Shown: in pieces, positions 530 to 49,567 of the stretch
How positions within the stretch are numbered: position 1 is the stretch's first letter
Layout of the letters: every line of letters starts with the position of its first letter
Assembly (NCBI GenBank): GCA_028716045.1
Contig: JAQUQO010000001.1
Span: 528,897-592,896, forward strand
Direction: 5' to 3'
DNA: 64,000 nt
Source of the DNA: Patescibacteria group bacterium
GTDB taxonomy: Bacteria > Patescibacteriota > Patescibacteriia > JAQUQO01
Notes under the pieces: model-generated
Database searches by the model: none
What the model saw: the letters and a program-made list of their open reading frames with translations, nothing else
What the model was told of the DNA's origin: nothing
Translations under genes and position numbers: made by a program

Positions 530-558
530 TTGACAAAATAGCTAAAATGTGCTATATT
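530..558 (+). promoter_or_regulatory. sigma70-like promoter TTGACA-17nt-TATATT for CDS starting 703
   Basis: TTGACA 530-535, TATATT 553-558, 17-nt spacer; AAGGAG RBS at 691-696. Confidence 0.55.
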
Positions 559-702
559 TAATAGTTAAAAAGAGTATATTTTAACCCCTTTAAATAGTCT
601 CTTTACCTCACTTTAGCGGGCCAAACACGAGTTGACTAAAGTCGGGTAAGCAGATTATTCTGCTGTTTGAAAACAAAAAAATTAATTTACAAGGAGATAA
701 AG

Positions 703-3700
703 ATGAAAAGGATGAAAAGTAATTTTTGGTTGATTTTGGTGTTGCTCGCGCCCTTGGGCTGCGGCAACGGAGAAAAGAGATCCTTCGCTGACGCTCAGGA
801 TGACAATGAGGGTGTCAGTGATGGTGGCGATGTTAACAACAATGACGACGATGACCCTTCGACAGACTCAGGGTCTGATGACGATGCTGGTGTTGAGCCG
901 TCAGACGGCGACGTCCCGATAGATGTCGGGGATGACGATGACGACACGACTTGCGTTCCGAGCAAAGAAATTTGCGACGGAAAGGACAATGACTGCGACG
1001 GCGATACTGACGAAGATTCGGCTTTGGAAATGGGATGTGACAACGACATTTTCTGCGACGGCGTTGAACAATGCCTTGGCGGATTTTGTGTCGTAGAAAT
1101 TGAACCCGAAGATTGCGCTCCTCTTTCGGACGAATGCAATGACGGCGTGTGCGATGAAGCCACCCGCGGTTGCCAAGCGGTTCCCAAAGAAAACGGGACA
1201 CTCTGCAACGCGGATTCTGATGGTTGCACCGAAAACGACTATTGCCAAGACGGTGATTGTCTATCCGGCAAAGCAGTGGATTGTTCGGGAGCGGTACCGG
1301 AAGAAGAAAAGCAATGCAACATCGGTGTCTGCTATTCTGCCGGAAACAATGAGTATGCTTGCGGCAAAGAATCTTTGCCCAACGAAACTCGTTGCGACGC
1401 GGATGGTGACGGCTGTACGGTCGGCGACACCTGCCAAGCCGGTGTCTGCGAAAAAGGACCGGCTCCGGATTGTTCCGAAGCTACGGATGCCTGCAACGCC
1501 GGAACTTGTTTCTCCGCTGGCTCGGAAACATATGAATGCGTTCCGACCCCCATGGAAGACCAAACTCCCTGCGACGCGGATGGTGACGGCTGCACAGTCG
1601 GCGACACCTGCCAAGCGGGAATTTGCGAGAAGGGTTTGCCGGCAGATTGCTCGGGTGTAAATACCCAATGCAAAACCGGTATCTGTATTTCCCAAGGTCA
1701 GGACAAATTCGTCTGCTCCTCTACGTCCAAGAACAACGGCGCGGCCTGTTTGGATAACGACGGCTGCACAGTCGGCGACAACTGCCAAGCGGGAATTTGC
1801 GTGGCGGGAACACCGGCTGACTGCTCGACGTTCACCAATCAGTGCAATGACGGCGTTTGCGAGGAAACGGCTGACCACGTTAACTTTAATTGCGTGGCTC
1901 AATCTAAACCCAACAACACCGCTTGCAATGCGGACTCTAACGGCTGTACAGTCGGCGACACCTGCCAAAACGGGAGTTGCCAAGCCGGAGCGAGCCGCGA
2001 TTGTTCCAAAAAGACCGACGATTGCAATCGCGGTATCTGTGTAGAGGACAGTTCAACTTCATCACACTGCGCGGCTAAGCCGAGGTCTAATGGAACTTCC
2101 TGTGAAGACGGCCAATACTGCACGGTCGGCGATTCCTGCCAAGACGGCGACTGCCAAGCCGGACCGGTGAAGGATTGCTCTCCTCTTTCGGACGAATGCA
2201 ACAACGGAGTGTGCGATGAAACGGCTGACAGTTGTGAAAAGTCGCCGATTAACGAAGGCGGCCTTTGCAATGACGGCGAGATTTGCACCACGACTTCTAC
2301 CTGCCAAAGCGGCGAGTGCAAGGGCGTAGATGACAAAGATGCCGATACTGACACTTTTATTGACAAGGATTGCGGCGGAACGGATTGCGACGACGGCGAC
2401 AACGGGATTTATCCCGGAGCGCTGGACACGGTGGGCGACGGCATTGACCAGAATTGCGACGGCCGAGACGGAGTGGACGCTGACAGCGATACTTATGCGA
2501 GTATCGCTTCCGGCGGAACGGATTGCGATGATGGCAACAACAGTATCCACCCTAACGCAGACGACAATGACACCGACGCGGTTGATGAAAACTGCGACGG
2601 CAAATTTGGCGGCGCGCTGGCGGGCGATGTTGATGCCGACGACTACGCGGCTTTGGGCACAGATGGAGTGACGGTGGTGGACTGCGATGATGATGAAGCT
2701 CTTGCCTATCCTAACAACCCGACCGATAAACTGGACAGTATTGACAACGACTGCGACGGCTGGGATGGGAAAAGTGAAAGCATAAGAGACATCGGCAGAA
2801 CCTACCTACAAATTTCCCTTGACTCCCAAGAAAAAATATGGATACTTGGCGGAAAATGGTTAAGCAACAACAAAGACGGAAATTGGGAAAATGAACAATG
2901 GAATCTAAATATGGCCAGTGATACAGATATGGCCCTTGACTCCTCTGACAACATCCATATTTCCTACCGTTGCGAGCAAGGGCTTTGCTACGCCAAAAGA
3001 GCGCCTGACGAAAGTTTGGAAACCACTATCATTGATAACGACGATCCGCAAACCGGTAAATCTACTTCCATCGCCCTAGACGACGACGGTTATCCACGGA
3101 TTTCTTACCGCGGATATAATGGCGACTTGCGGGAAGCGCGGTGGAACGGGGCAAACTGGGAAATACAAGTGGTACATGCCATTACAGACCTTGATAGAGG
3201 CACATCGCTTGTGATACAGAACAACTTAAGTCGTATTTCATACGAGAGAGTTGGCGCAACAGATGGATTGTGGTTGGCGGAAGAACAAAGTGATAGCAGT
3301 TGGGTTAAAAATAAAATTGACATCACTTATTCTGGTCTTTGGAGTTCAATGGCAGCGGATTCCGGCGGAAAACTCCATATTTCTTCCGGCTATTTCACGG
3401 CTAGCGGTTGGTCTCTTCGTATAACCACCAACGCCAGCGGGGATTGGGCGGGCGAACACGTTGATTTCAATGCCGATTATCCTCGCGGCTGGGCAACCTC
3501 AATGGCCGTGGATTCTAATGGGAAAAGACATGTGTTGTATCTCGCATTCGAAGAGCATAGGGTAATCTATGCTACCGACAAATCCGGAAGTTGGGTCTTA
3601 AGCGTCATCGGAGAATACAAAGATGGTGAAGAAGCTAATTTCATTACAGCCATAACGATTAACTCCGGTAACGAAATCCACGCCGTCTATTTCGGCGACA

Positions 3701-3744
3701 CAGCCCTTGGCGGCCCCTGCGACGGCCTGTGCTATGTGAAGTAA
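703..3744 (+). CDS. large secreted Cys/Asp-rich repeat protein (MopE-like metal-binding motifs; beta-propeller-like C-terminus)
   Basis: ATG 703 with AAGGAG RBS (track start 667 is a TTG). Lipoprotein-like signal LAPLGC. ~9 tandem CxADxDGCTVGDxCQAGxC modules. DCDDGDN..YPGA..CDGxDNDCDG MopE-type motifs. C-terminal ~45-aa repeats ending ISY/HISSGY. Confidence 0.85.
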   Translation: MKRMKSNFWLILVLLAPLGCGNGEKRSFADAQDDNEGVSDGGDVNNNDDDDPSTDSGSDDDAGVEPSDGDVPIDVGDDDDDTTCVPSKEICDGKDNDCDGDTDEDSALEMGCDNDIFCDGVEQCLGGFCVVEIEPEDCAPLSDECNDGVCDEATRGCQAVPKENGTLCNADSDGCTENDYCQDGDCLSGKAVDCSGAVPEEEKQCNIGVCYSAGNNEYACGKESLPNETRCDADGDGCTVGDTCQAGVCEKGPAPDCSEATDACNAGTCFSAGSETYECVPTPMEDQTPCDADGDGCTVGDTCQAGICEKGLPADCSGVNTQCKTGICISQGQDKFVCSSTSKNNGAACLDNDGCTVGDNCQAGICVAGTPADCSTFTNQCNDGVCEETADHVNFNCVAQSKPNNTACNADSNGCTVGDTCQNGSCQAGASRDCSKKTDDCNRGICVEDSSTSSHCAAKPRSNGTSCEDGQYCTVGDSCQDGDCQAGPVKDCSPLSDECNNGVCDETADSCEKSPINEGGLCNDGEICTTTSTCQSGECKGVDDKDADTDTFIDKDCGGTDCDDGDNGIYPGALDTVGDGIDQNCDGRDGVDADSDTYASIASGGTDCDDGNNSIHPNADDNDTDAVDENCDGKFGGALAGDVDADDYAALGTDGVTVVDCDDDEALAYPNNPTDKLDSIDNDCDGWDGKSESIRDIGRTYLQISLDSQEKIWILGGKWLSNNKDGNWENEQWNLNMASDTDMALDSSDNIHISYRCEQGLCYAKRAPDESLETTIIDNDDPQTGKSTSIALDDDGYPRISYRGYNGDLREARWNGANWEIQVVHAITDLDRGTSLVIQNNLSRISYERVGATDGLWLAEEQSDSSWVKNKIDITYSGLWSSMAADSGGKLHISSGYFTASGWSLRITTNASGDWAGEHVDFNADYPRGWATSMAVDSNGKRHVLYLAFEEHRVIYATDKSGSWVLSVIGEYKDGEEANFITAITINSGNEIHAVYFGDTALGGPCDGLCYVK

Positions 3745-3798
3745 TCCCCTTTCTCTCCCTTTGAAAAAGGGAGGTAAGGAGGGATTTAAAAAATCAAA

Positions 3799-3830
3799 AC
3801 ACCCCTGGGTAAAACTCGGGGTGTTTTTTT
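3799..3830 (+). terminator. rho-independent terminator (ACACCCC-loop-GGGGTGT + T7)
   Basis: 7-bp GC stem 3799-3824 then TTTTTTT. Confidence 0.7.
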
Positions 3831-3850
3831 ATTTGGGTTTTGATTTATAC

Positions 3851-3956
3851 AGAAACAATTCAGGCATTTGGTAGAGACGGGTTTAAAACCCGTCTCTACG
3901 GGGATACCGGGGGACGATAAAAGGATTGATGATTCGCATTATGTAGAGACCCCGCC
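3851..3956. repeat. composite repeat cassette copy 2
   Basis: Near-identical to 280-384; lies between convergent genes 703-3744 and 3971-7498. Confidence 0.8.
3871..3904. repeat. REP-like hairpin (identical to 300-332)
   Basis: GTAGAGACGGGTTTAAAACCCGTCTCTACGGGG. Confidence 0.8.
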
Positions 3957-3976
3957 TTGTCGAGACGTCTCTACGG
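3943..3976. repeat. REP-like hairpin GTAGAGACCCCGCC..GAGACGTCTCTACGG overlapping stop codon of 3971-7498 CDS
   Basis: GTAGAGAC/GTCTCTAC arms; minus-strand TAG stop at 3971-3973 lies inside the element. Confidence 0.6.
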
Positions 3977-6900
3977 ACTGCAGGTCATCACATTATCAGT
4001 TATCTCGCAGTTTCTTTTTATACTATTGTTGGCATTGCTATTTGAATCCATGTCAAACATATTTACTACTCCATCATTATCTCCATCTGAACCGCCCAAT
4101 AACACATTAACACATTGGTTTTGCCCCTCTATATTAACACATTTCCCGCCGACAAATTTACAGTCTCCATCTAAAAGGCACATTTTCCTTTCGCCCTCTT
4201 CCTCATAAGCGATTCCCTTACAATAAGGGTCGTCCATATTTGCCAAACCATTACCATCGTTATCAAATTTTCCATCAATACAATTTAATGTTCCCTCAAA
4301 ACAAGTATCGTCGCAAATCCCTTCTACTGGGAAACCAGTGGCCATTTTAGCGCTAAAGCCCACATCGCCAAGAAAATCACAGCGATAAACATTCGCCAGA
4401 TATTGACCAGCGCCGCCTGACATCTGCCAGCAATATTTTGCTCTTGTTTTATCACTCCCTTCCTCTCCTCCTTTTGTCCAAGTATTTCTGTGGACAAATA
4501 TCGGCTTTTGCGGAATCCCAATATCATCGCCATTAACCTTACATTCTTTCAAAAGCCAAAATGCTTCTTCATTTATTGAATCACCCGGCTGGACCGTGTA
4601 TTCCAAATTAGCTTTACCGTCTTCTTCTACACTACCGGAAACCAAGATGTTAGTTGTGCCCATACAAGATTCCCCTGTGGCGCAGTTATAATTGCCAAAA
4701 CAGATATTGCCAGAGATTTTCTCTCCGGTTTCTAACTCCTTCTCCGGACATCTCCCTGGAGTAATAACTTTACACTCCGCCATGCCCGAGGTGACTTTTA
4801 AATTCGCTAGTTTGACTGTAAAAGTATGCAAATGCGTGCCGGGCAAGGCCTGCCCGACATTCTCGCCGTCGCAATAAGCGTCGGTATTTTGGTAATCAGC
4901 ATAGCCATCGTCAACGCGCGCGCAATCCGTTCCACCACCTAAACAACACAACGGCTCAAAAATTCCTCCAGCCGGCGTCACGCGCACGGGCTCAAAACCA
5001 AAACTGGTTTTTATACCAACAAAACTACCAGCCACTGACGGCCCAAAATCAACCCAGCCAATATCCCACGGCGCCCATCCCCACCAGTAAAAATCTCCTT
5101 TGGAAATAAGAGGCTGTTCATTAATGGCAAAAGCCATTTTGGCGCCGTAAATCGGAGCGTCCAAATCCAGCGCCATCTTGCGCAAAGAAATCCAGCCCTC
5201 GCTGGCCGGATAAGCAATTACTTTCGCCCAGCCGCTGATATCGCCGATATTGGTATCGGCCTTGGCCGCAGCCGTCTGCGCTTCCGGAGTAGCGCCATAA
5301 TCAGCGCAGGTCGCGCCTACGCAAATCCAGCCCACGTTTTCGCTCCACATCCAGCCGGACAAAATTCCGTCCGCCGCGATTTTTACGCCATAAGCCGGAC
5401 CGGCGCAGGTATTGGTCGCCAAGTCGCAGTTATTAGCCGAAACCCAACCGACATTTTCGGACCACGCCCAGCCGTAAACATTGCCCTCGCAAGCGTCGCC
5501 CTGACCGTTGCCGTTGGAATCAATTTGTCTTTCCTGCCAGACACGCGGACAATTGTCGCTGATATCCAAAACACCGTCATTATCATAATCGCTGGTACCC
5601 ACGACAAAAAATGAAAAATGATTGATATTAAGCTCACAGACCAAATTCTCATTAAAGCAAACGGCCAGGCTTTCTCTCTGCCAAGTTCCATTGTTGTTCC
5701 AATAAATATCCGCCGAGTTATTAGCCAAAGAATATGGCAAACGGATAGTAACCGCCGAGGAAAAATTATTATCTCCGCCCTTGTGGAATTCGTAAATCTT
5801 ACTCAAGGGTGTTATGCCTTGCGCTTCCAAATTCGCCGGAACAGTTGTTTCGTAAATAGTGACTGTCGTGGCGCTCGCCAAAGCCCCGCTTGGGATATTG
5901 GCTTGCGCTCCGCCGGTAGTGCTTACTGCCCCGCCGGAAATTCTTATAACCGCCGACGCGCTTTCCTCGCCTGCGCAGGAATTGTTAAAATCGCCCGGAC
6001 AGGAATCGCAAACATCGCCAGAAGCGTCGGCGTCGGAATTAAGCTGGTCCGGATTGTAATTAGCCGGGCAATTATCAATGGTGTTATCTCTTAAATCGCC
6101 GTCGGTATCTAAATCGCAAAAATCCCCGAGCCCGTCATTGTCCGCGTCAGCTTGGTCGGGATTGGCGTTAAGTGGGCAGTTATCATTATTATTCAAAACG
6201 CCGTCATTGTCTTTATCAGTATCGCAGGCGTCGCCGGTGCCGTCGCTGTCATTATCAATCTGGTCAGGGTTATAAATATAGGGACAATTGTCAGCTGTGT
6301 TTAAACGGCCGTCGCTATCCCAGTCGGTGTCGCAAACATCGCCCTGACCATCATTGTCCGCGTCAGCTTGGTCGGGATTGGCAACGCTGGGGCAGTTGTC
6401 GCAGACGTCGCCATTACCATCGCCGTCAACATCAAGCTGATTGGCATTGGCGACAGCCGGGCAGTTGTCTCCGTTATCATCCACTCCGTCATTATCAGTA
6501 TCAGCAACTTCGCAGACATTACCAATACCATCGCCATCGGTATCGGCCTGGTCGGGGTTGGCGACTGAAGCGCAATTATCACAATTATTGCCAACACCGT
6601 CGCCATCGGCATCTTCCTGATTGGCGTTGGGATAATTGGGACAGTTATCGCAGACACTACCTCGGCCATCATTGTCCGCGTCAGCTTGGTCGGGATTGGC
6701 AATGCTGGGGCAGTTGTCGCAGGCGTCGCCGGTGCCGTCGCCGTCAACATCAAGTTGATTGGCATTGGCAACAGCAGGGCAGTTGTCTAAACTATCAGCC
6801 ACGCCATCACCATCCACATCTAAATAGTAGACCTCTATTTCATTCAAATAAGCGTAAGTTCCCGAATCCAAATCCGTCACTTTAAAATATCTGGCATTAA

Positions 6901-7498
6901 CCACGGAAGTAAAATAAATCTCTTTCAAACCGCCCGCCGGCACTTGGCCGCCGGAGTTCGGAGAAGGAACCAATTGCCAGTCGCCATCCCACCCGTCCGT
7001 GGTGTTCAACGAATACCATAATTTAAAAGCGGTGTATAAGTTATAAGTGTTTCTTAAAATAATTTTATTCACGGGACGCGCTTGCGGCATCTTCACAACC
7101 ACGATTGCCGGTTCATTCGCCTCCCGCCAGTAATCATTGACATTGTTAGCAATGGCTCCGTCAATAAGATTGCCGGGAGCGTAAGAAACGGCACCGGCGG
7201 GTCCGCTCCAACCAATAACGGTACCGCCCGCCTTTTTAACGTTCACCATCGTGCCGTCGGTGGTAAAATCGTATTTAACAAAAGAATCAGCTGTCTGCGC
7301 TTCCGCTTGGCCGATACCAAAAAACCCCCACACATTTTGCCAATACAAAATTGAAAGCAGGGGTAGAATTAAAATCAGGGCAAAAAGAAAACTGTAAAAA
7401 ATTTTCTTCCCCGCCTGAAACGGCGCCGGCTTAATCCCGAATAATCGGGACTGCCAAATCACCCTTTTGAGTAAAGAAAAAATCCACTTTTTATGCAT
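3971..7498 (-). CDS. giant surface protein: signal/TM anchor, F5/8 type C (discoidin) domain, ~12 thrombospondin type-3 Ca-binding repeats, GWxWSENVGW repeats, Cys-rich C-terminus
   Basis: N-term hydrophobic segment then AEAQ. YFKV..NEIEVYY discoidin signature. Repeated DxDxDGxGDxCDNCPxxxNxxQxD modules. Confidence 0.85.
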   Translation of the reverse strand: MHKKWIFSLLKRVIWQSRLFGIKPAPFQAGKKIFYSFLFALILILPLLSILYWQNVWGFFGIGQAEAQTADSFVKYDFTTDGTMVNVKKAGGTVIGWSGPAGAVSYAPGNLIDGAIANNVNDYWREANEPAIVVVKMPQARPVNKIILRNTYNLYTAFKLWYSLNTTDGWDGDWQLVPSPNSGGQVPAGGLKEIYFTSVVNARYFKVTDLDSGTYAYLNEIEVYYLDVDGDGVADSLDNCPAVANANQLDVDGDGTGDACDNCPSIANPDQADADNDGRGSVCDNCPNYPNANQEDADGDGVGNNCDNCASVANPDQADTDGDGIGNVCEVADTDNDGVDDNGDNCPAVANANQLDVDGDGNGDVCDNCPSVANPDQADADNDGQGDVCDTDWDSDGRLNTADNCPYIYNPDQIDNDSDGTGDACDTDKDNDGVLNNNDNCPLNANPDQADADNDGLGDFCDLDTDGDLRDNTIDNCPANYNPDQLNSDADASGDVCDSCPGDFNNSCAGEESASAVIRISGGAVSTTGGAQANIPSGALASATTVTIYETTVPANLEAQGITPLSKIYEFHKGGDNNFSSAVTIRLPYSLANNSADIYWNNNGTWQRESLAVCFNENLVCELNINHFSFFVVGTSDYDNDGVLDISDNCPRVWQERQIDSNGNGQGDACEGNVYGWAWSENVGWVSANNCDLATNTCAGPAYGVKIAADGILSGWMWSENVGWICVGATCADYGATPEAQTAAAKADTNIGDISGWAKVIAYPASEGWISLRKMALDLDAPIYGAKMAFAINEQPLISKGDFYWWGWAPWDIGWVDFGPSVAGSFVGIKTSFGFEPVRVTPAGGIFEPLCCLGGGTDCARVDDGYADYQNTDAYCDGENVGQALPGTHLHTFTVKLANLKVTSGMAECKVITPGRCPEKELETGEKISGNICFGNYNCATGESCMGTTNILVSGSVEEDGKANLEYTVQPGDSINEEAFWLLKECKVNGDDIGIPQKPIFVHRNTWTKGGEEGSDKTRAKYCWQMSGGAGQYLANVYRCDFLGDVGFSAKMATGFPVEGICDDTCFEGTLNCIDGKFDNDGNGLANMDDPYCKGIAYEEEGERKMCLLDGDCKFVGGKCVNIEGQNQCVNVLLGGSDGDNDGVVNMFDMDSNSNANNSIKRNCEITDNVMTCSP

Positions 7499-7608
7499 AA
7501 TAAAAAATTAGTTTCTACTGTGGATATTATAGCATAAAACACGAAAACATAAAAACATGAAAACAAAAGGGTCTAAAAACAATAAACATTAAAAACCGCT
7601 AAAACTAA

Positions 7609-7639
7609 TAAAAAACCAGCTCCCGAGTTTGGGGGCTGG
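7609..7639 (-). terminator. rho-independent terminator for 3971-7498/7669-10008 unit boundary (minus strand)
   Basis: Hairpin CCAGCTCCCGAGTTTGGGGGCTGG with A6 upstream on plus = U-tract on minus; near-identical copy at 10332-10362. Confidence 0.65.
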
Positions 7640-7668
7640 TTTGGATTAGTTTTAACGCTTTTATACCC

Positions 7669-10008
7669 TTAGGGTGATGCGCATTCCTCATAACACTTCT
7701 GAAAACAAATTCCAGTTCTGTCTTCCATCCCGGAGAACGAAACACAGGCAGTATTATTAGTGCAAGTATCTACCATACCAAGAATCATGCAAACGCCGTT
7801 ACGGTCGTCCGTATTACCTGGGGGGTCTTCACCCACTTGCCAACCGTCAGGCACACAAAATACCATATCGTTGCCACTACTATCTTGACCAAGTATTGAA
7901 CAGGTTTCATCTATCATACAACCGTTCAACCTTAAACGAGGCACTTCAATTTCACTAACTGGGCAAAAGCCAGTGCATATCGGCGTTTCGCCAGGGCCAA
8001 ACCAATTGACACACATCATATCATTGGAATTCTGATAACACGCATCATCCTCTATTGGATCTCCCTCTCCACAAACACCGTTTCTTTCGTTTTTTTCTCC
8101 TGGGTAGGTTGTACCGTCTCCGTTTATCAAATTCGGGTCAGTAGGATAACAAGCGCCGGCACCGCCGACATCAACGCATTTCTCGTTCTGAAGACATGAT
8201 TTCTCTTCAATCGAACCAATCCCCGCCGTATGGCATGAGAAATAATCATCAAAACAATAAGTAAAAAAACAATCTGCGTCCATTGAATTGTCGGGCAACA
8301 CACAGCCGTTTTCATTTGAACAAGTGCTCCATTTCTGTATGCAAGTCATGCAGTCGCCCGAGATGTTGTTTTGACATTCGGTGATGCAGTTATCCCTCTC
8401 TTGTATTTGTTCCTGGGTCAAATCTTCGTCTGCTTCGTTAATATATGGACAAGCTGCAATACATTCATCATATTCTTTACAAACAGGTTCTTCGGGATAT
8501 TCAAACGGTTGGATATTTGGATTATACACGCAATCCTCAGGAATTTCTTCGCATTCCCCGCCCTCGCAAAAAGTGAACTGCGGGCATTCATTAAAACATG
8601 ACCCGCAGTGCTCATCGGTAGAAGGCGCAGGAGAAACATCATCCATCCTCCCATCACAATCATTGTCTATCCAATCGCAAATCTCCACGCCATTGTTTGT
8701 AGGAACACACGAGTCGTCATCGTCATCTGTGATATCGTCATCATCATCTGCCGATTCGCAGACTACCTCTTCGCCGCAAACCCAATAGCCTTCCTCGCAC
8801 ATGCAGGTATTCCCTGTACCAGCCTCCGTCGCGCAACCGGCTTCATAGAAGCACATCGAATCGGCTTCCACCTCAGCATTATACTCCCGTATCATTTCGC
8901 ATTTTCCTTCGGGATAGGTGTCGATACAGACATCTCTATCTAAGGCGCAGGTGTCCATTATCACTGTCGGGTCGTAGCAATTATTGAAATCGTCTTGCCA
9001 CTTCATACAAGCAATTTGCTTGTTATAGCAATCAAGGCAATTACACATATCCGCGTCCGGCGTTGACTGGCTGCAGCCTAAAATGGCGTTGTAAATATCG
9101 TCATAGATTTCGCAGGATTTATACGTGCAGGGCCGGTCGGTATAAATTTCGTCTTTTTGGTTGCAGTTAAGCTTGCTAACGACTTCATCAGGGGTCTCAT
9201 CCCCTTTAGGCAGGCAGGTGGGTGGTCTTAATGAGGGGTCTTCGCACTCGACGGCCGAATCGTCATCATCCACATCATCATCCACATCATCATCGCCGGT
9301 GTCATCGTCGTCGGTAACGTCATCGGGAGGAGGACATTTGCCATCCCAATCCGGATTAATATCGTAAGAATTGCCACTATGCAGATACACTGGCACACTG
9401 TATCCTTCGCTTATGCGACAATTATAAGAAGTGGTCTCTTTAACCCAGCAAATAGCTTCATCATCATAACTATAGTTGCCCGGCACGCCAAAGTAATCCG
9501 GGCAGGAACTTAATTCTTCGTAGGGCGGTTCCGCGGACCACTTTCCGCCGATTAGTTCACAACACTGCCGGTCTATTTCATCATCAATATCCATCACCAT
9601 ATATAAATATTCAGCGGGCATATTAAAGACGGTAGCACAGCTGTCGCCTTCTTCGCATAAAAGGTCTCTGTTCTCACAGTTATATCCAGAGTCATCATCA
9701 TCTCCCCTCTCCAGACAAATCTCATCTTCATCACAGCTCTCATCAAGAGTCCAGGCATAACCGCCGCCATGGGCTTCCATGCATTCCAGAACTGCTGTCT
9801 GGTCCGGGGTGCAGGTTTCTACTTCTGGCACATAACACGACTCGCCGGGATTGGCAGAATCAAAATCTCCGACAGAAGAATCGTTATTATCATTGTCATC
9901 ATCATCTTCTTCTCCTGCTTCTCCTCCCCCGCCGCAGGCAACGAAAACGAGTATTGCCACTAGGGCCAGCGTCAACCAAAACAACCTCTTTACATTTCTT
10001 TCTAACAT
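7669..10008 (-). CDS. secreted acidic Cys-rich lipoprotein (about 90 Cys, poly-Asp tracts, one MopE-like CDxxDNDCDG motif)
   Basis: Signal peptide LALVAILVFVACGGGG (lipobox-like). Long ORF with strong coding periodicity. Function unknown. Confidence 0.8.
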   Translation of the reverse strand: MLERNVKRLFWLTLALVAILVFVACGGGGEAGEEDDDDNDNNDSSVGDFDSANPGESCYVPEVETCTPDQTAVLECMEAHGGGYAWTLDESCDEDEICLERGDDDDSGYNCENRDLLCEEGDSCATVFNMPAEYLYMVMDIDDEIDRQCCELIGGKWSAEPPYEELSSCPDYFGVPGNYSYDDEAICWVKETTSYNCRISEGYSVPVYLHSGNSYDINPDWDGKCPPPDDVTDDDDTGDDDVDDDVDDDDSAVECEDPSLRPPTCLPKGDETPDEVVSKLNCNQKDEIYTDRPCTYKSCEIYDDIYNAILGCSQSTPDADMCNCLDCYNKQIACMKWQDDFNNCYDPTVIMDTCALDRDVCIDTYPEGKCEMIREYNAEVEADSMCFYEAGCATEAGTGNTCMCEEGYWVCGEEVVCESADDDDDITDDDDDSCVPTNNGVEICDWIDNDCDGRMDDVSPAPSTDEHCGSCFNECPQFTFCEGGECEEIPEDCVYNPNIQPFEYPEEPVCKEYDECIAACPYINEADEDLTQEQIQERDNCITECQNNISGDCMTCIQKWSTCSNENGCVLPDNSMDADCFFTYCFDDYFSCHTAGIGSIEEKSCLQNEKCVDVGGAGACYPTDPNLINGDGTTYPGEKNERNGVCGEGDPIEDDACYQNSNDMMCVNWFGPGETPICTGFCPVSEIEVPRLRLNGCMIDETCSILGQDSSGNDMVFCVPDGWQVGEDPPGNTDDRNGVCMILGMVDTCTNNTACVSFSGMEDRTGICFQKCYEECASP

Positions 10009-10107
10009 CTTTCCACCTCCATTTTTACGGTTTACAATTCTTTACCAACAAAATTTATTTTAACCAAAAATTACTTTTGGATTATCAAGGAACGCCAGTT
10101 TAGAATT

Positions 10108-10136
10108 AGTATAGAAAAAACATCAAAAAAGGTCAA
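10108..10136 (-). promoter_or_regulatory. sigma70-like promoter TTGACC-17-TATACT (minus strand) for 7669-10008
   Basis: -35 at 10131-10136, -10 at 10108-10113 (reverse complement), 17-nt spacer, ~95 nt upstream of ATG. Confidence 0.5.
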
Positions 10137-10149
10137 GAGCTGAAATGAA

Positions 10150-10320
10150 GCTCCGTGCGGGTGAACATCTACCCCGGCGCCAATGGGTCGGACGGGCTCG
10201 CGCTTCGCCCGAAAAAGGGATGTGCCTATTCGGCACACGCGCTCGCCCCGAGGTTGGCGCGAGGTTAATATTTACAAGCCGCCATTCATCCCCTCACCTT
10301 GGGCGGAGGGAACTCTTGCG
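10150..10320. ncRNA. GC-rich (~65% GC) structured non-coding element of unknown identity between terminator and promoter
   Basis: Sharp GC island in AT-rich intergenic DNA. Multiple local hairpins (CCCGAAAAAGGG, GTGCCTATTCGGCAC, CTCGCGC/GCGCGAG). Only an Arg-rich implausible ORF. Strand and identity undetermined. Confidence 0.2.
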
Positions 10321-10331
10321 GGTAAATATTA

Positions 10332-10362
10332 AAAAAACCAGCTCCCGAGTTCGGGGGCTGGT
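10332..10362 (-). terminator. rho-independent terminator (minus) after 10472-12787; near-identical to 7609-7639
   Basis: AAAAAAACCAGCTCCCGAGTTCGGGGGCTGG. Confidence 0.65.
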
Positions 10363-10471
10363 TTGGGGAGTTATTTTTCAACCTATTTTCCTACCAGTTC
10401 CTAAAAATAAAAAAACAAAAAAGCTTGAATTTTAGCAACTTGCTAAAAACTTTTGAGGTAAGTGTTTTGGG

Positions 10472-12787
10472 TTAGGGGCAGTCTGTCTCTAAAATTACTC
10501 CGCGACTGCGAAGCTCCGCTATGTTCACACCTTGAGCCGCACAATCAATGGGATTGTATCTTATGTCCACCTCATCGTCATTATCAATACCAGAATTGCT
10601 CACGAGCGGCGATATATCGCTTATTCGATTATAATCAAGCCAAAGCGTTGTCAGTGCAGTAAGGTTTGACAATGGTGAGATGTCGCTTACCCCGTTGCCC
10701 CAAAGGTCAAGTATTGTCAGTGCAGTAAGGTTTGACAATGGCGAAATATCGCCTACTTGGTTGACCCTAAGGTAAAGCGTTGTCAGCGCAGTGAGGGTTG
10801 ATAATGGTGAGATATCGCTTACCTCGTTGCCCCAAAGGTCAAGTATTGTCAGCGCAGTGAGGTTTGACAATGGCGAGATGTCGCTTATTTGGTTGTTCTT
10901 AAGGTCAAGATCTGTCAGCGCAGTGAGGTTTGACAATGGTGAGATGTCGCTTATTTGGTTGCCCCAAAGGTCAAGTATTGTCAGCGCAGTGAGGTTTGAC
11001 AATGGCGAAATATCGCCTACTTGGTTGACCCTAAGGTAAAGCATTGTCAGTGCAGTAAGGTTTGACAACGGCGAAATATTGCTTATCTGGTTGTCCCAAA
11101 GGTAAAGCATTGTCAGTGCAGTAAGGTTTGACAACGGCGAAATATCGCTTATTTGGTTGGACAGAAGATTAAGTGTTGTCAGCGCAGTGAGGTTTGACAA
11201 TGGCGAGATGTCGCTTATTTGGTTGTTCTTAAGGTCAAGATCTGTCAGCGCAGTAAGGTTTGACAACGGTGAGATGTCGCTTATTTGGTTGGACCAAAGG
11301 TTAAGCAATGTCAGTGCAGTAAGGCATTCTATTCCTCCAAGGTATTGGATATCTTTATCTCCAGCATCAAGAAATGTCCGGTCTTTAACGTCTAAATAAT
11401 AAATGCCGCCAGAAAGCTTGCCAATAGCGTCCCGCACCGCCCGCTCAAGGTTTGGATCAGTAAAACTTATGACACCTTTACATTGGTCTGGGATATCCTG
11501 TTCGCAGGTATACGATTGAATGTTGCAGAACTCGCCCGCGGGACAATCCGCATCATCCGTGCACTCCACACAAATATTTCCTATACAGTAAGCATCTCCT
11601 CCTACGCAGGTACCGCAACTTCCTCCGCAACCATCATCGCCACACTCTTTACCGGAACAATCCGGTTCCAAGGGAGCAACACTGCAATATAACCCCGCCG
11701 GATTTGCTTCGAGCAAGCAAATTACCTCCCCCGTGTTTTGGCACTCTCCTTCGCCCGCAACACACTCTTCACCAATACTGGGAATATCATTGTCTATTTT
11801 GCCATCGCAATCATTGTCTTTGCCGTCGCAGAGTTCCTCGCCCGGCGGCAAAGCAACAGCGTCGCAGACGATTGACTTTTTGTCTAGCGAACAGATGTAT
11901 TCACCCCAAACGCGGCAATCGCTTAAGCCGTCGCTGCATTGGTCGCCCTTGCCGACTTCTTGCGCAGTCGGAAGGAAACCATTGTCCGCCACCTCATCGC
12001 AGTCATTATCTTTTTCATCACACAGCTCCTCGGCCCCCGGATAAACGGTTTTATCCTTGTCATCGCAATCGCCGTTTTTGACAGTAACCCCATCTTCGTC
12101 TTCATCGCGGTCAGAGTATTTGGCGTTGTATTCGTCAATGAACTTTTTGCCGGCGGTAAACTTTCCTCCCCACGCTTTGCCCTTAGAATCAAAGTCAACG
12201 TCTTCGCCATATTTAGGTCCATAACCGAAGTAAACCCAACTATAATTATCATACTCATCTTTAGGAGCGGGTCCTTTGCGAATACCAAAATGAAGGTGAG
12301 GTTCATTGTCGCCATTTTCATCATCTAAAACGCCATTACAATAAGCCACCCTACCATGAGGTGGCTTACCTCCGCTATGCCCCACATAACCAATAATTTC
12401 TCCTTTTTTGACAACCCCGCTTAACCTTGGTTTATATCCTTCGCGATTTGTCATATGGCCATATACTGAAGTTATTTTACCCCCATCCAGCAATGTATGC
12501 TCTACCACCACGACCATGCCATAACAAGTATGAGCTCCAGAGACAATACCCGTGATAATTTTCCCATTGCCAATTGCTCTCACGGGAGTTAAGGGTGATC
12601 TTTTGTCATCTTCGCCCAAATGTCGAGGCCAGCAACATCCAAAAACACGACCAAAGAATGAACCAGGATCATAGTTCGATAAAGGATATCCCAAACTGTC
12701 TGTTATTTCCGGTTCTTCAGAATAAGTATTTTTGGTATAACCGTAAACAGCAAAAAAAACAATTCCAATCAATATCAACCTTTTCAT
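10472..12787 (-). CDS. secreted multidomain protein: M23 peptidase domain + MopE-like Cys-rich modules + ~11 internalin-like 22-aa leucine-rich repeats
   Basis: Signal peptide. M23 motifs (GHM..., GHSGG, PHLHFGIR). CDxKDNDCDE/CDGKDNDCDG motifs. Tandem LTALTxLxLxxNQISDISPLSNL repeats (periodic DNA 10640-11340). Confidence 0.85.
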   Translation of the reverse strand: MKRLILIGIVFFAVYGYTKNTYSEEPEITDSLGYPLSNYDPGSFFGRVFGCCWPRHLGEDDKRSPLTPVRAIGNGKIITGIVSGAHTCYGMVVVVEHTLLDGGKITSVYGHMTNREGYKPRLSGVVKKGEIIGYVGHSGGKPPHGRVAYCNGVLDDENGDNEPHLHFGIRKGPAPKDEYDNYSWVYFGYGPKYGEDVDFDSKGKAWGGKFTAGKKFIDEYNAKYSDRDEDEDGVTVKNGDCDDKDKTVYPGAEELCDEKDNDCDEVADNGFLPTAQEVGKGDQCSDGLSDCRVWGEYICSLDKKSIVCDAVALPPGEELCDGKDNDCDGKIDNDIPSIGEECVAGEGECQNTGEVICLLEANPAGLYCSVAPLEPDCSGKECGDDGCGGSCGTCVGGDAYCIGNICVECTDDADCPAGEFCNIQSYTCEQDIPDQCKGVISFTDPNLERAVRDAIGKLSGGIYYLDVKDRTFLDAGDKDIQYLGGIECLTALTLLNLWSNQISDISPLSNLTALTDLDLKNNQISDISPLSNLTALTTLNLLSNQISDISPLSNLTALTMLYLWDNQISNISPLSNLTALTMLYLRVNQVGDISPLSNLTALTILDLWGNQISDISPLSNLTALTDLDLKNNQISDISPLSNLTALTILDLWGNEVSDISPLSTLTALTTLYLRVNQVGDISPLSNLTALTILDLWGNGVSDISPLSNLTALTTLWLDYNRISDISPLVSNSGIDNDDEVDIRYNPIDCAAQGVNIAELRSRGVILETDCP

Positions 12788-12801
12788 CTCTTTATCCTCC
12801 T

Positions 12802-13434
12802 TTAAGGTAACCGCACGGTTTGTAAAATTTTCTCAACTTCTGTTTTTATCTCGGTTGGCTCACGATCACCATTTAACATGTAATTAATAAAAATAATAAT
12901 ACTGGCTTCCTTATTATTAAACAACACACATTCGGCATAATTTATACCACCGCAAGCCACTATTAATGCACCATGTCCATCTATATAGATCCGCTCTTGA
13001 AGAGTTCCGTTATAATCTACATATTTAATGAGATCGTCCACATCATCACCTTCCACGTTTTCTCTTACATTAATTCCTATTGACACTTCTGCCATCCGAG
13101 TCAGATGTTCGAAATAATCCTGGCTAGCAAACTCCTCCTCCAGTCCTTCGCGCCATCGATACAGAATGCCGTCCTCCGATACCCTCCAATTCGGCGGATA
13201 TTTGAGGGTGATGCCGTCCTGCTCGTAGGTCTTCCATCCGACAAAATCTGACTCGCCGGAATCGCTGTCGATAGAAACATCTTCTTCGGCGGACGCGTCC
13301 TTATTTGCGCCAACGGCCGGAAGATTGTCCTCCTCTTTAACCGAAACGTTTGGGCTATCCTTGCCGCAACCCATTCCGATTAAAATTAATGATAAAAAAA
13401 TGCCCAAAGTTAAACAAAGTTTTTTTGCGCTCAT
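12802..13434 (-). CDS. secreted lipoprotein, unknown function (210 aa), co-oriented upstream of M23-LRR gene
   Basis: Signal + lipobox LILIGMGCG; 14-nt gap to downstream gene suggests operon. Confidence 0.65.
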   Translation of the reverse strand: MSAKKLCLTLGIFLSLILIGMGCGKDSPNVSVKEEDNLPAVGANKDASAEEDVSIDSDSGESDFVGWKTYEQDGITLKYPPNWRVSEDGILYRWREGLEEEFASQDYFEHLTRMAEVSIGINVRENVEGDDVDDLIKYVDYNGTLQERIYIDGHGALIVACGGINYAECVLFNNKEASIIIFINYMLNGDREPTEIKTEVEKILQTVRLP

Positions 13435-13585: not shown

Positions 13586-13614
13586 TTGACAAAATCATCA
13601 AAATTTGCTATAAT
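13586..13614 (+). promoter_or_regulatory. consensus promoter TTGACA-17-TGcTATAAT (extended -10)
   Basis: TTGACA 13586-13591; TATAAT 13609-13614; AGGAGG RBS 13649-13654 before ATG 13659. Confidence 0.6.
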
Positions 13615-13658
13615 TTAAAATTAAGCTAATGAATTAACAACCAACAAAGGAGGAAAAA

Positions 13659-13943
13659 ATGGAGATAATTAACTGCCCTTATTGTAAAGTAGAGTTGGGC
13701 GTTGAAGTGGGTAACGAGATAAAAATTTATCACTGCCCCTGTTGCGATACCGTGTTCTTTATATCAAAATCTCTTCTTGAAAAATCCCCCATGGAACAAC
13801 TGCTCCCTAAATATCCTCTAGAGCTTACCATGCCCTTTTCAGAACTTCCTACTGTTGAAATCTCAAAAAAAATAAGCACACTTTTTGAAAAGGTAATGGC
13901 TAAAGAGAACAAAAAGGGGGGCTTTGAGCCAAAACTAAAATAG
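13659..13943 (+). CDS. small zinc-ribbon protein (CPYC...CPCC), 94 aa
   Basis: CxxC-x17-CxxC; strong promoter and RBS. Confidence 0.6.
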   Translation: MEIINCPYCKVELGVEVGNEIKIYHCPCCDTVFFISKSLLEKSPMEQLLPKYPLELTMPFSELPTVEISKKISTLFEKVMAKENKKGGFEPKLK

Positions 13944-26695: not shown

Positions 26696-27271
26696 TTACC
26701 CCCTCCTGATTTTGATATCGTATAAAATTTCCTCAATCTTTTTTAAATTGTGCTTTGCCTGGTCGTATTTGACGCGCAAGTAACTCGTCAGATTCATTTG
26801 AATAAGTTCGGCCATAATTTCTTCCAGCACATCCTTCGCCTCCTCCGCCGCTTTGTAATTTCCCTTGTTGGCCTGGTTAATCGCCCGCCGGACAATCTCG
26901 CCCGTCAGGTCGCAAACCCCGCCGATATAGGAATCAAAATTAATCTCCATTTCTTTTATTTCACCAATTTTCCCCTTTTCCAAAAACATGCAAAATAATT
27001 TTGCTTCCACATATTCTTCCACCGCCGCGCGATACGACCCTTCACTATTTAAAATTTCCTGATTTTTTATTTTCTTTTTCAGGTCGGCAAAAATGGCCTC
27101 CACTTCTCCGAGCGTCTTTTTGGCTTCCGCTAAATTCTCCCGATGAAGAGAAAAAATCGCCTGTTTGGATTTATGTAAGGCGTCTCCCGTATATCTAATA
27201 ATCTGCCGGCGATAACCGACGTATTCCAGAAAATCTTTTCTAAGCTGCGCGAAAAACTTTTTGTTAATCAT
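26696..27271 (-). CDS. helical protein, possibly translin-like (191 aa)
   Basis: YIGGVCDLTGEIVRRA resembles translin-family core; low confidence. Confidence 0.35.
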   Translation of the reverse strand: MINKKFFAQLRKDFLEYVGYRRQIIRYTGDALHKSKQAIFSLHRENLAEAKKTLGEVEAIFADLKKKIKNQEILNSEGSYRAAVEEYVEAKLFCMFLEKGKIGEIKEMEINFDSYIGGVCDLTGEIVRRAINQANKGNYKAAEEAKDVLEEIMAELIQMNLTSYLRVKYDQAKHNLKKIEEILYDIKIRRG

Positions 27272-30115: not shown

Positions 30116-31000
30116 TTAAAAAATGAAGAAAGAGATAAAGAACCCGGCAATTCCCAAAAGAGCAATCGGCGGGAGAGCCGGAATGGGGGTTGGTTTTTGC
30201 GGACGGACAAAAATAAAATGAGTTATAATTACTCCGACAAACGAAAAAAGAGAAACTATCAAGGCGTTTAAAATGTTAAAGTTAGCCGCGGCCGCCGCCA
30301 AAATTAAAGGTAGGGCAAAATCTCCCCCGCCCATAATCACAAAATCTTGCCCGACCTTAATCTCCGACAGGTCGGCTTTCCATTTTAATATTTTCTCGGG
30401 AATGATAAGGGCGATAATGACTCCGCGTTCCATCAACCCTTTGGCCATAGCCACCATATGCTTAGTTCCGTAAACAGCCACTACGTCATAAACGGATAAA
30501 ATAAACAAAATGAGAACGGCTGTCCAGGGGTTAAGGGAATTGCCGAAACTGCCGCCAATCCCCGACAAGACCAAAACCATAATTAAATTATGAAGCCAAA
30601 TTTTCTGATAAAATTTCCTGATCACCAAAAGTAGAATGGCTGCCATAACCGAAAGGAAATTATTGAGCCAAAAGCTTAAAACAATTTCTAAACCGCCCCA
30701 AAGAGCTAAAACATAAAAAAACATTAAAATTCTTTTCCCTCCCCTGAACTTTAAAAGAAACAAGATTGCCAACGTGGCCAGCAAAAAATAGATTAACGCC
30801 CCCGACCAACTTAATTCTTCCACCGCGACGGTGCCGGCAACTGTCATTAAATTCAAACGCCAGGAAAAATAGATGCCTAAAGAAAAAACTAATAAAAACA
30901 ATAATAGCTCTTCCGCGAGCAACACAATTTTATATTTTATTAAAAAATCCCTCAATTTGCCCATGCCTAAATAAAAATGATTATTCTTTAAGTTTACCAT
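30116..31000 (-). CDS. polytopic membrane protein, possible presenilin/signal-peptide-peptidase-like aspartyl protease
   Basis: YD (SVYDVVAV) and GxGD-like (MGGGDFALP) motifs in adjacent TMs; tentative. Confidence 0.4.
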   Translation of the reverse strand: MVNLKNNHFYLGMGKLRDFLIKYKIVLLAEELLLFLLVFSLGIYFSWRLNLMTVAGTVAVEELSWSGALIYFLLATLAILFLLKFRGGKRILMFFYVLALWGGLEIVLSFWLNNFLSVMAAILLLVIRKFYQKIWLHNLIMVLVLSGIGGSFGNSLNPWTAVLILFILSVYDVVAVYGTKHMVAMAKGLMERGVIIALIIPEKILKWKADLSEIKVGQDFVIMGGGDFALPLILAAAAANFNILNALIVSLFSFVGVIITHFIFVRPQKPTPIPALPPIALLGIAGFFISFFIF

Positions 31001-49378: not shown

Positions 49379-49567
49379 TTAAAAATCTTCTTTAATTATC
49401 AGGGTAATAATAGCACTGGCCGCCGAGATAATCAAGACAAAATGGGGATTGAAAAAATTAACAACAAAACCCTTGATAAAAAATTCTAAAATCATCAAAG
49501 CCGCCCACAAAATAAAAGAAGCATAAAATAATTCTTCAAAAAATATTTTGACAAATCCCCTATTCAT
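49379..49567 (-). CDS. small membrane protein (62 aa)
   Basis: Two hydrophobic segments; overlaps next gene by 8 nt. Confidence 0.3.
   Translation of the reverse strand: MNRGFVKIFFEELFYASFILWAALMILEFFIKGFVVNFFNPHFVLIISAASAIITLIIKEDF

Follow-up and report, generated by a model that had tools for sequence, protein, structure and literature searches.

What are large, secreted, cysteine- and aspartate-rich proteins doing, one gene after another, in the genome of a Patescibacteria bacterium? This question is raised by a 64,000-nt stretch of DNA (the window: contig JAQUQO010000001.1 of assembly GCA_028716045.1, positions 528,897 to 592,896), in which positions 667 to 13,434 had been predicted from the letters alone to form an accessory locus of giant Ca/metal-binding repeat proteins, serving cell-surface adhesion or host interaction in an episymbiotic lifestyle. 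DNA beyond the start of the window was read from JAQTRY010000001.1 (812 kb, with the window as its reverse strand; metagenome-assembled genome (MAG) GCA_028711565.1). The source genome is a patescibacterial MAG (Candidate Phyla Radiation, CPR), which makes an episymbiotic setting reasonable. The predicted locus belongs to a lineage-specific island of ~28 kb on this 812-kb contig, about half of which lies in the window, running from ftsEX to pilM and bordered by a conserved surA-dpbb-ftsE-ftsX block on one side and a type IV pilus operon (pilM onward) on the other. We infer, with moderate confidence, that this island encodes a fast-evolving, partly type IV pilus-linked toolkit for surface adhesion and cell-wall lysis.

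In the orientation of the record, the gene order is ftsE-ftsX, the divergent orf94, g5, g4, g3 and g2, then an inverted g1, an inverted cassette for a ribosomally synthesised and post-translationally modified peptide (RiPP), and genes for proteins of 708, 1165 and 1780 aa that lead into pilM; the RiPP cassette and these three further giants lie outside the window start. The five predicted open reading frames (ORFs) could be placed as g1 on the plus strand (703(667)-3744) and g2 (3971-7498), g3 (7669-10008), g4 (10472-12787) and g5 (12802-13434) on the minus strand, and the same genes were called independently in the NCBI record. Together, the island encodes eight large, acidic, disulfide-/Cys-rich exported mosaic proteins with net charges of -64 to -166, and direct reading of the N-termini finds an export signal, lipobox or transmembrane (TM) anchor in every one of them. 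Cysteine makes up 4.2-9.4% of g1-g4, against 0-0.7% of the products of the neighbouring ftsX, ftsE, dpbb and surA, and therefore this composition is not a matter of chance. Export signals, binding-type domains and adjacency to a pilus operon thus all speak for the adhesion part of the original prediction, while the functional role itself stays putative.

So how is the island connected to the pilus? In this genome the genes for the 708-, 1165- and 1780-aa proteins precede pilM in that order, as an operon, with the 1780-aa gene at L024 16112-21454, outside the window. The 1165-aa protein carries thrombospondin type 3 (TSP3) repeats and a C-terminal region in common with g2; by direct reading it also shares a central region with the 1780-aa protein, both match a 1407-aa protein on contig L026, and both contain acidic double-disulfide repeats. 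On L026, a g2-type protein (P0075) is followed by the 1407-aa protein, which is a full-length 1780-type homologue, and then by pilM, a pilN/O-like and a PilB-like gene, and on L027, L061 and L073 the gene directly upstream of pilM again encodes a 1780-type C-terminal domain. As such, this domain (YPWLETQ...IIYDGR...NPPPG) is adjacent to pilM in all five contexts seen, i.e. this genome and contigs L026, L027, L061 and L073. The giant Cys-rich 1780-type protein matches no Pfam or NCBIfam family, also when both of its ends are scanned against Pfam at E<=1. Because the 708/1165 pair forms an operon with the 1780-aa gene and pilM, the family appears functionally tied to the pilus apparatus, as pilus-associated adhesins or envelope components, and judging from sequence the 1780-type protein is perhaps an accessory protein of the type IV pilus that has escaped recognition. 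The position directly upstream of pilM is taken by 1165/1780 and their homologues on these contigs, not by g1-g4, and g2 is linked to it via paralogy only.

This paralogy extends to g3, a 779-aa lipoprotein without a family. It had been described as acidic with about 90 Cys; the acidity stands (net charge -149), the count does not, as there are 73 Cys (9.4%). Neither Pfam nor NCBIfam holds a family for g3, scans of its thirds at E<=1 returned nothing meaningful, and PDB sequences gave no match even at E<=0.1. A phmmer search of 1.84 billion (1.84e9) representatives yielded no full-length homologue; its matches are single-module fragments (P0003, P0005, P0006 and P0035) and the in-genome paralogue, with ~60 further proteins that match solely via a MopE-like CDWIDNDCDG motif. 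From the N-terminus, g3 consists of a domain common to the 708-aa paralogue and P0035 (nt 9334-9861), a module common to P0003 and P0005 (nt 8758-9246), the CDWIDNDCDG motif (nt 8539-8709, a sub-threshold Pfam match of 22.1 bits) and a module common to P0006 (nt 8224-8613), and in P0035 the domain of g3 and the 708-aa protein is joined to an Lcl_C domain. By its sequence, g3 is a mosaic of modules with poly-Asp linkers between them, and a near-orphan. The sole clear homologue found in a word-index search of 5.8 billion proteins is the 708-aa protein, whose C-terminus likewise gave nothing meaningful in a Pfam scan at E<=1. These two proteins have their N-terminal 250 residues in common and are 25-36% identical. 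Their upstream regions, on the other hand, are 84% identical: the g3 promoter (TTGACC-17-TATACT, 10136-10108) with its leader (10009-10136, minus strand) corresponds to the 708 promoter and leader (L024 9870-10000, plus strand), including a near-invariant block of ~75 nt with a CCAAAA...TTTTGG hairpin. This disparity between leader and protein identity points to either gene conversion or a regulatory leader common to both genes. Since g3 and g2 have the 708- and 1165-aa proteins as their respective paralogues, with order kept and 84% leader identity, the g3-g2 segment can be regarded as a diverged segmental duplicate of 708-1165.

The product of g2 (1175 aa) has an N-terminal TM helix or signal peptide as anchor and combines, in this order, a probable discoidin domain (nt 6854-7183), a Ca-binding wire (nt 5984-6838), a beta-rich segment, a GWxWSENxGW domain of four hairpins (nt 5036-5497, aa 668-821), a C-terminal region (nt 4169-5011) and a Cys-rich tail. 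The discoidin domain that had been predicted must be downgraded to probable, as its match to F5_F8_type_C (PF00754; aa 106-215, profile positions 12-118 of 127, E=5.9e-6) scores 26.9 bits, below the gathering threshold of 28.2. The TSP3 repeats, of which about 12 had been claimed, are well recovered (PF02412, 219 bits against a cut-off of 25, E=3e-66), in 10 stretches with 9-10 cores matched by regular expression, and in the PDB their region matches the calcium wire of thrombospondin-2 (E=9e-63). Like the wires of thrombospondin and COMP, it follows the pattern DxDxDGxxDxxDxC, and it reaches 267 bits to Myxococcus MtsC, a protein of cell-cell cohesion and, like OmpA-TSP3, one of the bacterial TSP3 proteins; this score is below the equivalog cut-off of 350. 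Unlike those TSP3 proteins, g2 has no MYXO-CTERM signal and no thrombospondin C-terminal lectin domain, and instead has the discoidin and GW domains fused to the wire. The ~280 residues after the GW module are common to P0072 (45%), P0074, P0075 and the 1165-aa paralogue, and a Pfam scan of the g2 C-terminus at E<=1 gave nothing meaningful. A ZU5-like autoproteolytic domain, suggested by eye from an NHFSFF motif, was dropped as no such Pfam match exists.

The GWxWSENVGW repeats noted earlier proved to be four GW(A)WS(E)N(V)GW hairpins within a 150-residue module located after the TSP3 wire. This module has no Pfam family (scan at E<=1); it forms the N-terminus of many secreted proteins of 400-650 aa, usually right after the signal peptide, and at least 520 stretches of it were confirmed in JGI metagenomes. 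In g2 it was modelled with a pLDDT of 83-95, predicting a small eight-stranded beta-barrel, and when the g2 model, GW domain included, was searched against the PDB with Foldseek, no match came below E=0.07; in this model, confidence is low except in the GW domain and a single Ig-like stretch. We also observed GW-domain proteins in a Parcubacteria genome (GCA_023128895.1, L028 6897-15765), within a run of paralogous genes whose products have in common an N-terminal anchor with F(A/S)W(D/T/S)EP as its last residues, and this sequence could be an unrecognised sorting or processing signal.

Further candidates for binding are found in g1, a 1013-aa lipoprotein-like secreted protein whose signal peptide (aa 1-20) with lipobox-like motif is followed by an acidic linker. 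The tandem CxDxDGCTVGDxCQAG modules that had been reported here are present as six CxxDxDGCTVGDxCQxGxC cores at 59-aa spacing, inside an array of about seven 8-Cys modules (nt 952-2337) that is visible at the DNA level as repeats of 174-180 nt, and for which a Pfam scan at E<=1 gave nothing meaningful. Downstream, three MopE-type CxDxDxxxxPG...CDGxD motifs (nt 2365-2772) reach 48.9 bits against a Pfam cut-off of 27, also as anticipated. The C-terminus (nt 2797-3741) was indeed modelled by AlphaFold2, from an alignment of its homologues, as an all-beta propeller (pLDDT 81.6, pTM 0.81). Foldseek places it closest to PLL and PHL, seven-bladed lectins of Photorhabdus that bind sugars (E ~1e-12, TM 0.6-0.7), with sialidase-like hydrolases as the next matches; identity to the lectins is just 10-13%. 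Its homologues, ~30% identical over this C-terminal third, occur in varied bacteria and one archaeon and often carry BNR_4 (PF15892), some also a MopE motif; the g1 propeller itself has no match in the Pfam scan of g1, BNR_4 included. From its fold, we infer a lectin function for this propeller.

In g4, a secreted protein of 771 aa, a potential binder is combined with an enzyme. All three parts that had been read into it hold up. The M23 metallopeptidase domain (nt 12269-12622) scores 40.4 bits against a cut-off of 28.7 and has its motifs intact (H56LGED60, YGH111M and H164LH166); in the PDB it matches TagE (E=3e-4). As in other M23 peptidases such as lysostaphin, LytM and TagE, the core keeps the Zn ligands and catalytic His, and it differs by an insertion of ~23 residues before the HxH. 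Next come MopE-type and Myxococcus-type Cys-rich repeats (nt 11468-12070), with two MopE-like modules above the cut-off at 41.2 bits plus Myxo_Cys_RPT, and an array of 11-12 internalin-type leucine-rich repeats (LRRs; nt 10583-11464), of which eleven 22-residue repeats account for an LRR_4 score of 188 bits. This array follows the Listeria internalin consensus LxxLxxLxLxxNxIxDI. However, class 1 internalin models (NF033189 etc.) reach 228 and 203 bits where their cut-offs are 1600 and 1050, with the LRR region alone aligning, and in g4 no cap/IR region or LPXTG signal was identified. By sequence, then, g4 is of the LRR binder type and not an internalin. A phage-lysin origin was rejected, as only the LRR part matches the phage collection, to Listeria internalin-like sequences, and neither that collection nor the literature searched yielded a protein in which an N-terminal M23 domain is joined to MopE repeats and LRRs. 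At the DNA level, a tandem repeat of 66 nt encodes the LRR array, with 63-85% identity from one 300-nt register to another. Recombination readily alters the copy number of arrays of this type, which is a possible source of strain variation. The gene upstream of g4, g5, had been read as encoding a lipoprotein and is a putative one, as its 210-aa product has a signal peptide with a lipobox-like ...IGMGC and otherwise only a weak PsbP_2-like match below the cut-off (E=0.0012). Its stop codon is 14 nt upstream of the g4 start, which makes co-transcription probable.

Do relatives keep these genes? In 13 species-representative loci (Patescibacteria or Falkowbacteria, with FtsX 39-51% identical), surA, dpbb, ftsE and ftsX are mostly kept, and downstream of ftsX unrelated genes are found, with no homologue of g1-g5. 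In a closer contig, L110 (FtsX 75% identical), ftsX is followed by a homologue of orf94 and then by P0006, a 591-aa Cys-rich acidic lipoprotein that has a g3-like signal region and C-terminal module, a different middle and a g3-type terminator, and g5 and g4 are not at the position beside ftsX. With a different g3-like mosaic present and g5/g4 lacking, island content must vary between relatives. It had been set beforehand that conserved envelope proteins among the homologues would count against the adhesion proposal. This outcome did not materialise: 13 relatives are without g1-g5, L110 has a different mosaic, and g3 is near-unique.

Taken together, these observations can be arranged into a tentative mechanism. 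The proteins would leave the cytoplasm through Sec and stay attached to the cell surface via an N-terminal lipid or TM anchor, where Ca2+-loaded TSP3, MopE-type and other acidic Cys-rich repeats would form rigid, protease-resistant stalks. As terminal binders on these stalks, g1 would display its lectin-like propeller, g2 its probable discoidin domain and GW beta-barrel, and g4 its LRR solenoid, and the binding modules would attach to glycans or proteins of another cell or surface, with g4 delivering an active M23 endopeptidase to the peptidoglycan so bound. The g3-g2 pair would have arisen from the segmental duplication described above, its 708/1165 source being part of the operon with the 1780-aa gene and pilM, and module shuffling, tandem-repeat expansion and REP-like repeats would drive rapid evolution of the island.

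We must however take into account several points that weigh against this proposal. M23 enzymes also have a part in the division of the cell that makes them, and g4 is near ftsEX. Extracellular disulfides furthermore require an oxidising system. The relatives compared are distant, except for one contig of just 3.6 kb, and the discoidin call in g2 is below threshold. As for the pilus, g1-g4 have promoters and terminators of their own and are separated from pilM by 16-26 kb, and no class III (pilin-type) signal peptide was found when the N-terminus of each of g1-g5 and of the 708-, 1165- and 1780-aa proteins was read directly, arguing against incorporation in the pilus fibre; from their sequences, the island proteins are not type IV pilins or minor pilins. 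Moreover, pilM is nearby in only 4 of 80 metagenomic loci with a GW domain (L030-L109), and therefore the GW domain as such is not pilus-specific. A general pilus linkage of this domain was rejected on that account, and the claim narrowed to the 1780-type C-terminal domain.

M23/LytM proteins are established partners of FtsEX, and g5-g4, oriented like ftsX, is 650 bp downstream of it in a dcw/cell-division neighbourhood. Could the island then be part of the housekeeping envelope, the Cys-rich proteins building the cell's own surface layer or wall matrix, with g4 as an FtsEX-controlled peptidoglycan hydrolase for its own division, like EnvC, PcsB, CwlO or RipC? S-layers have been reported in CPR cells (PMC4736985), which fits. 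However, neither g4 nor any other g1-g5 homologue is found downstream of ftsX in the 13 dpbb-ftsE-ftsX relatives, and the relative with a 75% identical FtsX has no M23 gene there. In addition, g4 does not have the coiled-coil by which EnvC and PcsB contact FtsX but an LRR array in its place, the divergent orf94 with a promoter of its own stands between ftsX and g5-g4, and the RlpA-like DPBB gene, which most relatives keep, is a better candidate for an FtsEX partner. Orphan, mosaic and non-conserved genes are also unlike a core envelope component. We therefore consider this explanation doubtful as a whole, and the coupling of g4 to FtsEX unlikely given its absence beside ftsX in the 13 relatives and L110. 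The artefactual or foreign origin of the block, through assembly or binning error or as a recently acquired, possibly phage-derived, segment, would at first sight suit its G+C content of 46-52%, against 38-45% elsewhere in the window, as well as the repeats on both sides of g1. Yet the locus lies inside an 812-kb contig, and independent Logan assemblies reproduce g1 and the 708/radical SAM segment exactly, those with g1 being contigs of 3.2-3.6 kb that stop no more than a few hundred bases from it. Furthermore, GC3 and codon choice of the island genes match those of housekeeping genes, the extra G+C sitting in codon positions 1 and 2, so that it reflects the content of Asp, Gly, Cys and Ala and not recent transfer; recent horizontal transfer was rejected on these grounds. 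Pfam annotation of the neighbourhood contains no integrase, transposase or phage gene and, as stated, the phage-collection match is limited to the internalin-like LRR part of g4. An origin of this kind is thus extremely improbable.

The two other explanations concern the chemistry of the cysteines. That the Cys/Asp-rich repeats (Pfam 'Cu-binding_MopE') sequester Cu, other metals or Ca2+ for acquisition, detoxification or mineral nucleation would agree with the MopE-type motifs above the Pfam cut-off in g1 and g4, with a weak PDB match to MopE (2vov, E=0.008, motif only), and with the extreme acidity and the TSP3 repeats, which are known binders of many Ca2+ ions. Nevertheless, the match is limited to a short CDGxDNDCDG-type motif, a structural Ca/disulfide knot widespread in surface proteins and the sole connection of g3 with the ~60 otherwise unrelated proteins mentioned above, and the copper site of MopE itself is unmatched; in terms of sequence, membership of g1 and g4 in the MopE copper-binding family is not claimable beyond this short motif (PF11617). 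The label 'metal-binding' in the original prediction goes back solely to the Pfam name of the motif and is an overstatement. As a metal-handling function would also leave the lectin-like propeller, the LRRs, the M23 peptidase and the pilus linkage unexplained, we regard it as improbable. The remaining proposal is that the giants are substrates or partners of a radical SAM enzyme, cross-linked by thioethers or similar through the ACGX-type maturase that is encoded between g1 and the 708-aa gene. The RiPP cassette (L024 7586-9549) does lie mid-island and comprises a Cys/Gly-rich precursor of 60 aa, an ACGX-type radical SAM/SPASM enzyme that reaches 433 bits against TIGR04340 (cut-off 400), and a TehB-like SAM methyltransferase, the last gene of the cassette, of which the 3' end is at positions 1-170 of the window (plus strand) while most of the cassette is outside it. 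With a maturase above the equivalog cut-off adjoining a short Cys-Gly-rich ORF, the cassette qualifies as an ACGX system, and the maturase family is related to SbtM and PapB-type Cys-modifying maturases; a literature search for 'ACGX' found nothing. What speaks against the giants as substrates is that a dedicated precursor, with its own promoter, is located directly upstream of the enzyme (C-terminus ...CGQGSCNCGGGCNVECGGE, with the ORF end also given as ...ASPCGQGSCNCGGGCNVECGGE), and that a terminator-like hairpin and a promoter separate the cassette from g1. Radical SAM maturases are moreover cytoplasmic and act on leader-bearing peptides, not on 1000-aa Sec substrates, which makes this proposal very improbable.

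Returning to adhesion and wall lysis as the favoured function, how does the island compare with what has been described? CPR Peribacteria carry a 14-gene cluster for large extracellular proteins of ~7% Cys, with weak similarity to Myxococcus repeats and variation between strains, for which attachment was proposed (Anantharaman et al. 2016, PMC4736985). The island shares the features of these clusters, i.e. clustered large Cys-rich proteins with signal peptides, Myxococcus-type repeats, variability and a small CPR genome, a likeness judged on features and not by sequence comparison. It differs in belonging to another phylum-level lineage, in that TSP3, M23-LRR, lectin-like propeller and GW domain are resolved here, and in having part of it in a pilM operon. 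In ultra-small predatory or episymbiotic Omnitrophota, 'dockerin-type' giants with TSP3 and discoidin domains are encoded beside conserved T2SS/T4P-like loci, and roles in attachment and the breakdown of cell walls were proposed for them (West-Roberts et al. 2023, 10.1101/2023.11.21.568195). Here too the proteins are extracellular and of a Ca-binding type, with TSP3 and a probable discoidin domain, near T4P-like genes; yet those giants exceed 30,000 aa where these have 700-1800 aa, no dockerin was detected here, and the phylum is another one. In the Saccharibacteria, PilX2 of Nanosynbacter lyticus TM7x, a beta-propeller minor pilin, was proposed as a type IV pilus host adhesin that binds host glycans (PMC11623550). 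Like PilX2 and the Ca2+-dependent PilY1 of Pseudomonas, the island offers a large pilus-linked accessory protein and a C-terminal beta-propeller. However, the g1 propeller resembles PLL/PHL lectins and BNR_4, with no PilY1 among the matches listed; g1 is outside the pil operon and has a lipoprotein-type signal, and the pil-linked 1165- and 1780-aa proteins are without a propeller. The Pam pili of CPR bacteria, with Ig-like pilins and donor-strand exchange, are a different system as far as their published description goes (10.64898/2026.03.03.709456). As such, the architectures can indeed be called uncharacterised for these proteins, but not for this kind of locus, which is published in Peribacteria and Omnitrophota. 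The locus is a further instance of a published phenomenon, distinguished by its M23-MopE-LRR and discoidin-TSP3-GW fusions, the near-orphan g3, moderate protein sizes, the paralogous pair in the pilM operon and the RiPP cassette in the middle of the island.

The non-coding sequences of the island are repetitive as well, as had been noted from the letters. Three REP-like palindromic hairpins (GTAGAGAC...GTCTCTAC, followed by GGGG) occur at 189-402 and a further one overlaps the g2 stop codon (3943-3974); eight of the ten GTAGAGAC sites in the window flank g1, where 0.33 sites per whole window are expected by chance. A direct repeat of ~140 nt brackets g1, with copy A at 226-362 and copy B, consisting of a terminator-like and a REP hairpin, at 3790-3933, and its 90-nt core is 94% identical. 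We also note that a segment in front of g1 (370-480) is found again in front of the RiPP precursor (L024 9700-9830). The g1 promoter (530-558, plus strand) is of the sigma-70 type with an extended TG (TTGACA-17-TATATT). Intrinsic terminators 3' of g3 (7610-7644) and g4 (10332-10366), both on the minus strand, are 97% identical, confirming their duplication, and a 93% identical copy is located 3' of the g3-like gene in L110. The GC-rich element is real, too, as a unique block of 64% GC is found at ~10130-10330, with the terminator of g4 on one side and the promoter of g3 on the other. Folding of the element, terminator included, gives z-scores of -4.6 (minus strand) and -3.0 (plus strand), and it is missing upstream of the paralogous 708-aa gene. 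A search of Rfam, over the whole window at gathering thresholds and over 10000-10480 at E<=1, returned only two tRNAs and terminator look-alikes. The element may be a small structured RNA.

At its conserved edge, next to ftsX, the island is marked by orf94 (13586-13943, plus strand), which is divergent from g5 and codes for a small protein with a zinc ribbon (CPYC...CPCC). The orf94 promoter (13586-13614) matches the consensus at 12 of 12 positions and is a near copy of that of g1 (528-568). The gene is found beside ftsX in relative L110 as well, with a protein identity of just 29%. The remainder of the window is that of a typical small CPR genome, with a split dcw/Mur cluster, ftsEX, a SurA-like PPIase, glycosyltransferases and rhamnose genes. 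It also contains a Translin-family gene, a signal-peptide-peptidase (SPP) family gene and three ORFs (462, 482 and 700 aa) without a Pfam family, at 26696-27271, 30116-31000, 41639-43027, 49560-51008 and 53232-55334. Genes of the Translin and SPP families are believed to be uncommon among bacteria.

What, then, may these proteins mean for the cells that carry them? A more far-reaching idea, which we put forward as speculative and rather unlikely in its entirety, is that the g2/1165/1780 family belongs, so far unnoticed, to the structure of the type IV pilus apparatus in Patescibacteria and allied bacteria, serving as an envelope-spanning conduit or a host-recognition head in cells without the PilQ secretin and PilY1. 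The GW domain would then be a new ligand-binding beta-barrel fold, and g3-g2, together with g1 and g4, a cassette that has been duplicated, has diversified and alters the specificity for hosts. Outside the Saccharibacteria, it is largely unknown how ultra-small CPR bacteria recognise and attach to their hosts. For this process the locus provides candidates, namely a lectin-like propeller lipoprotein, an LRR-targeted M23 peptidase, a widespread GW domain, and a family of giant proteins encoded directly upstream of pilM.

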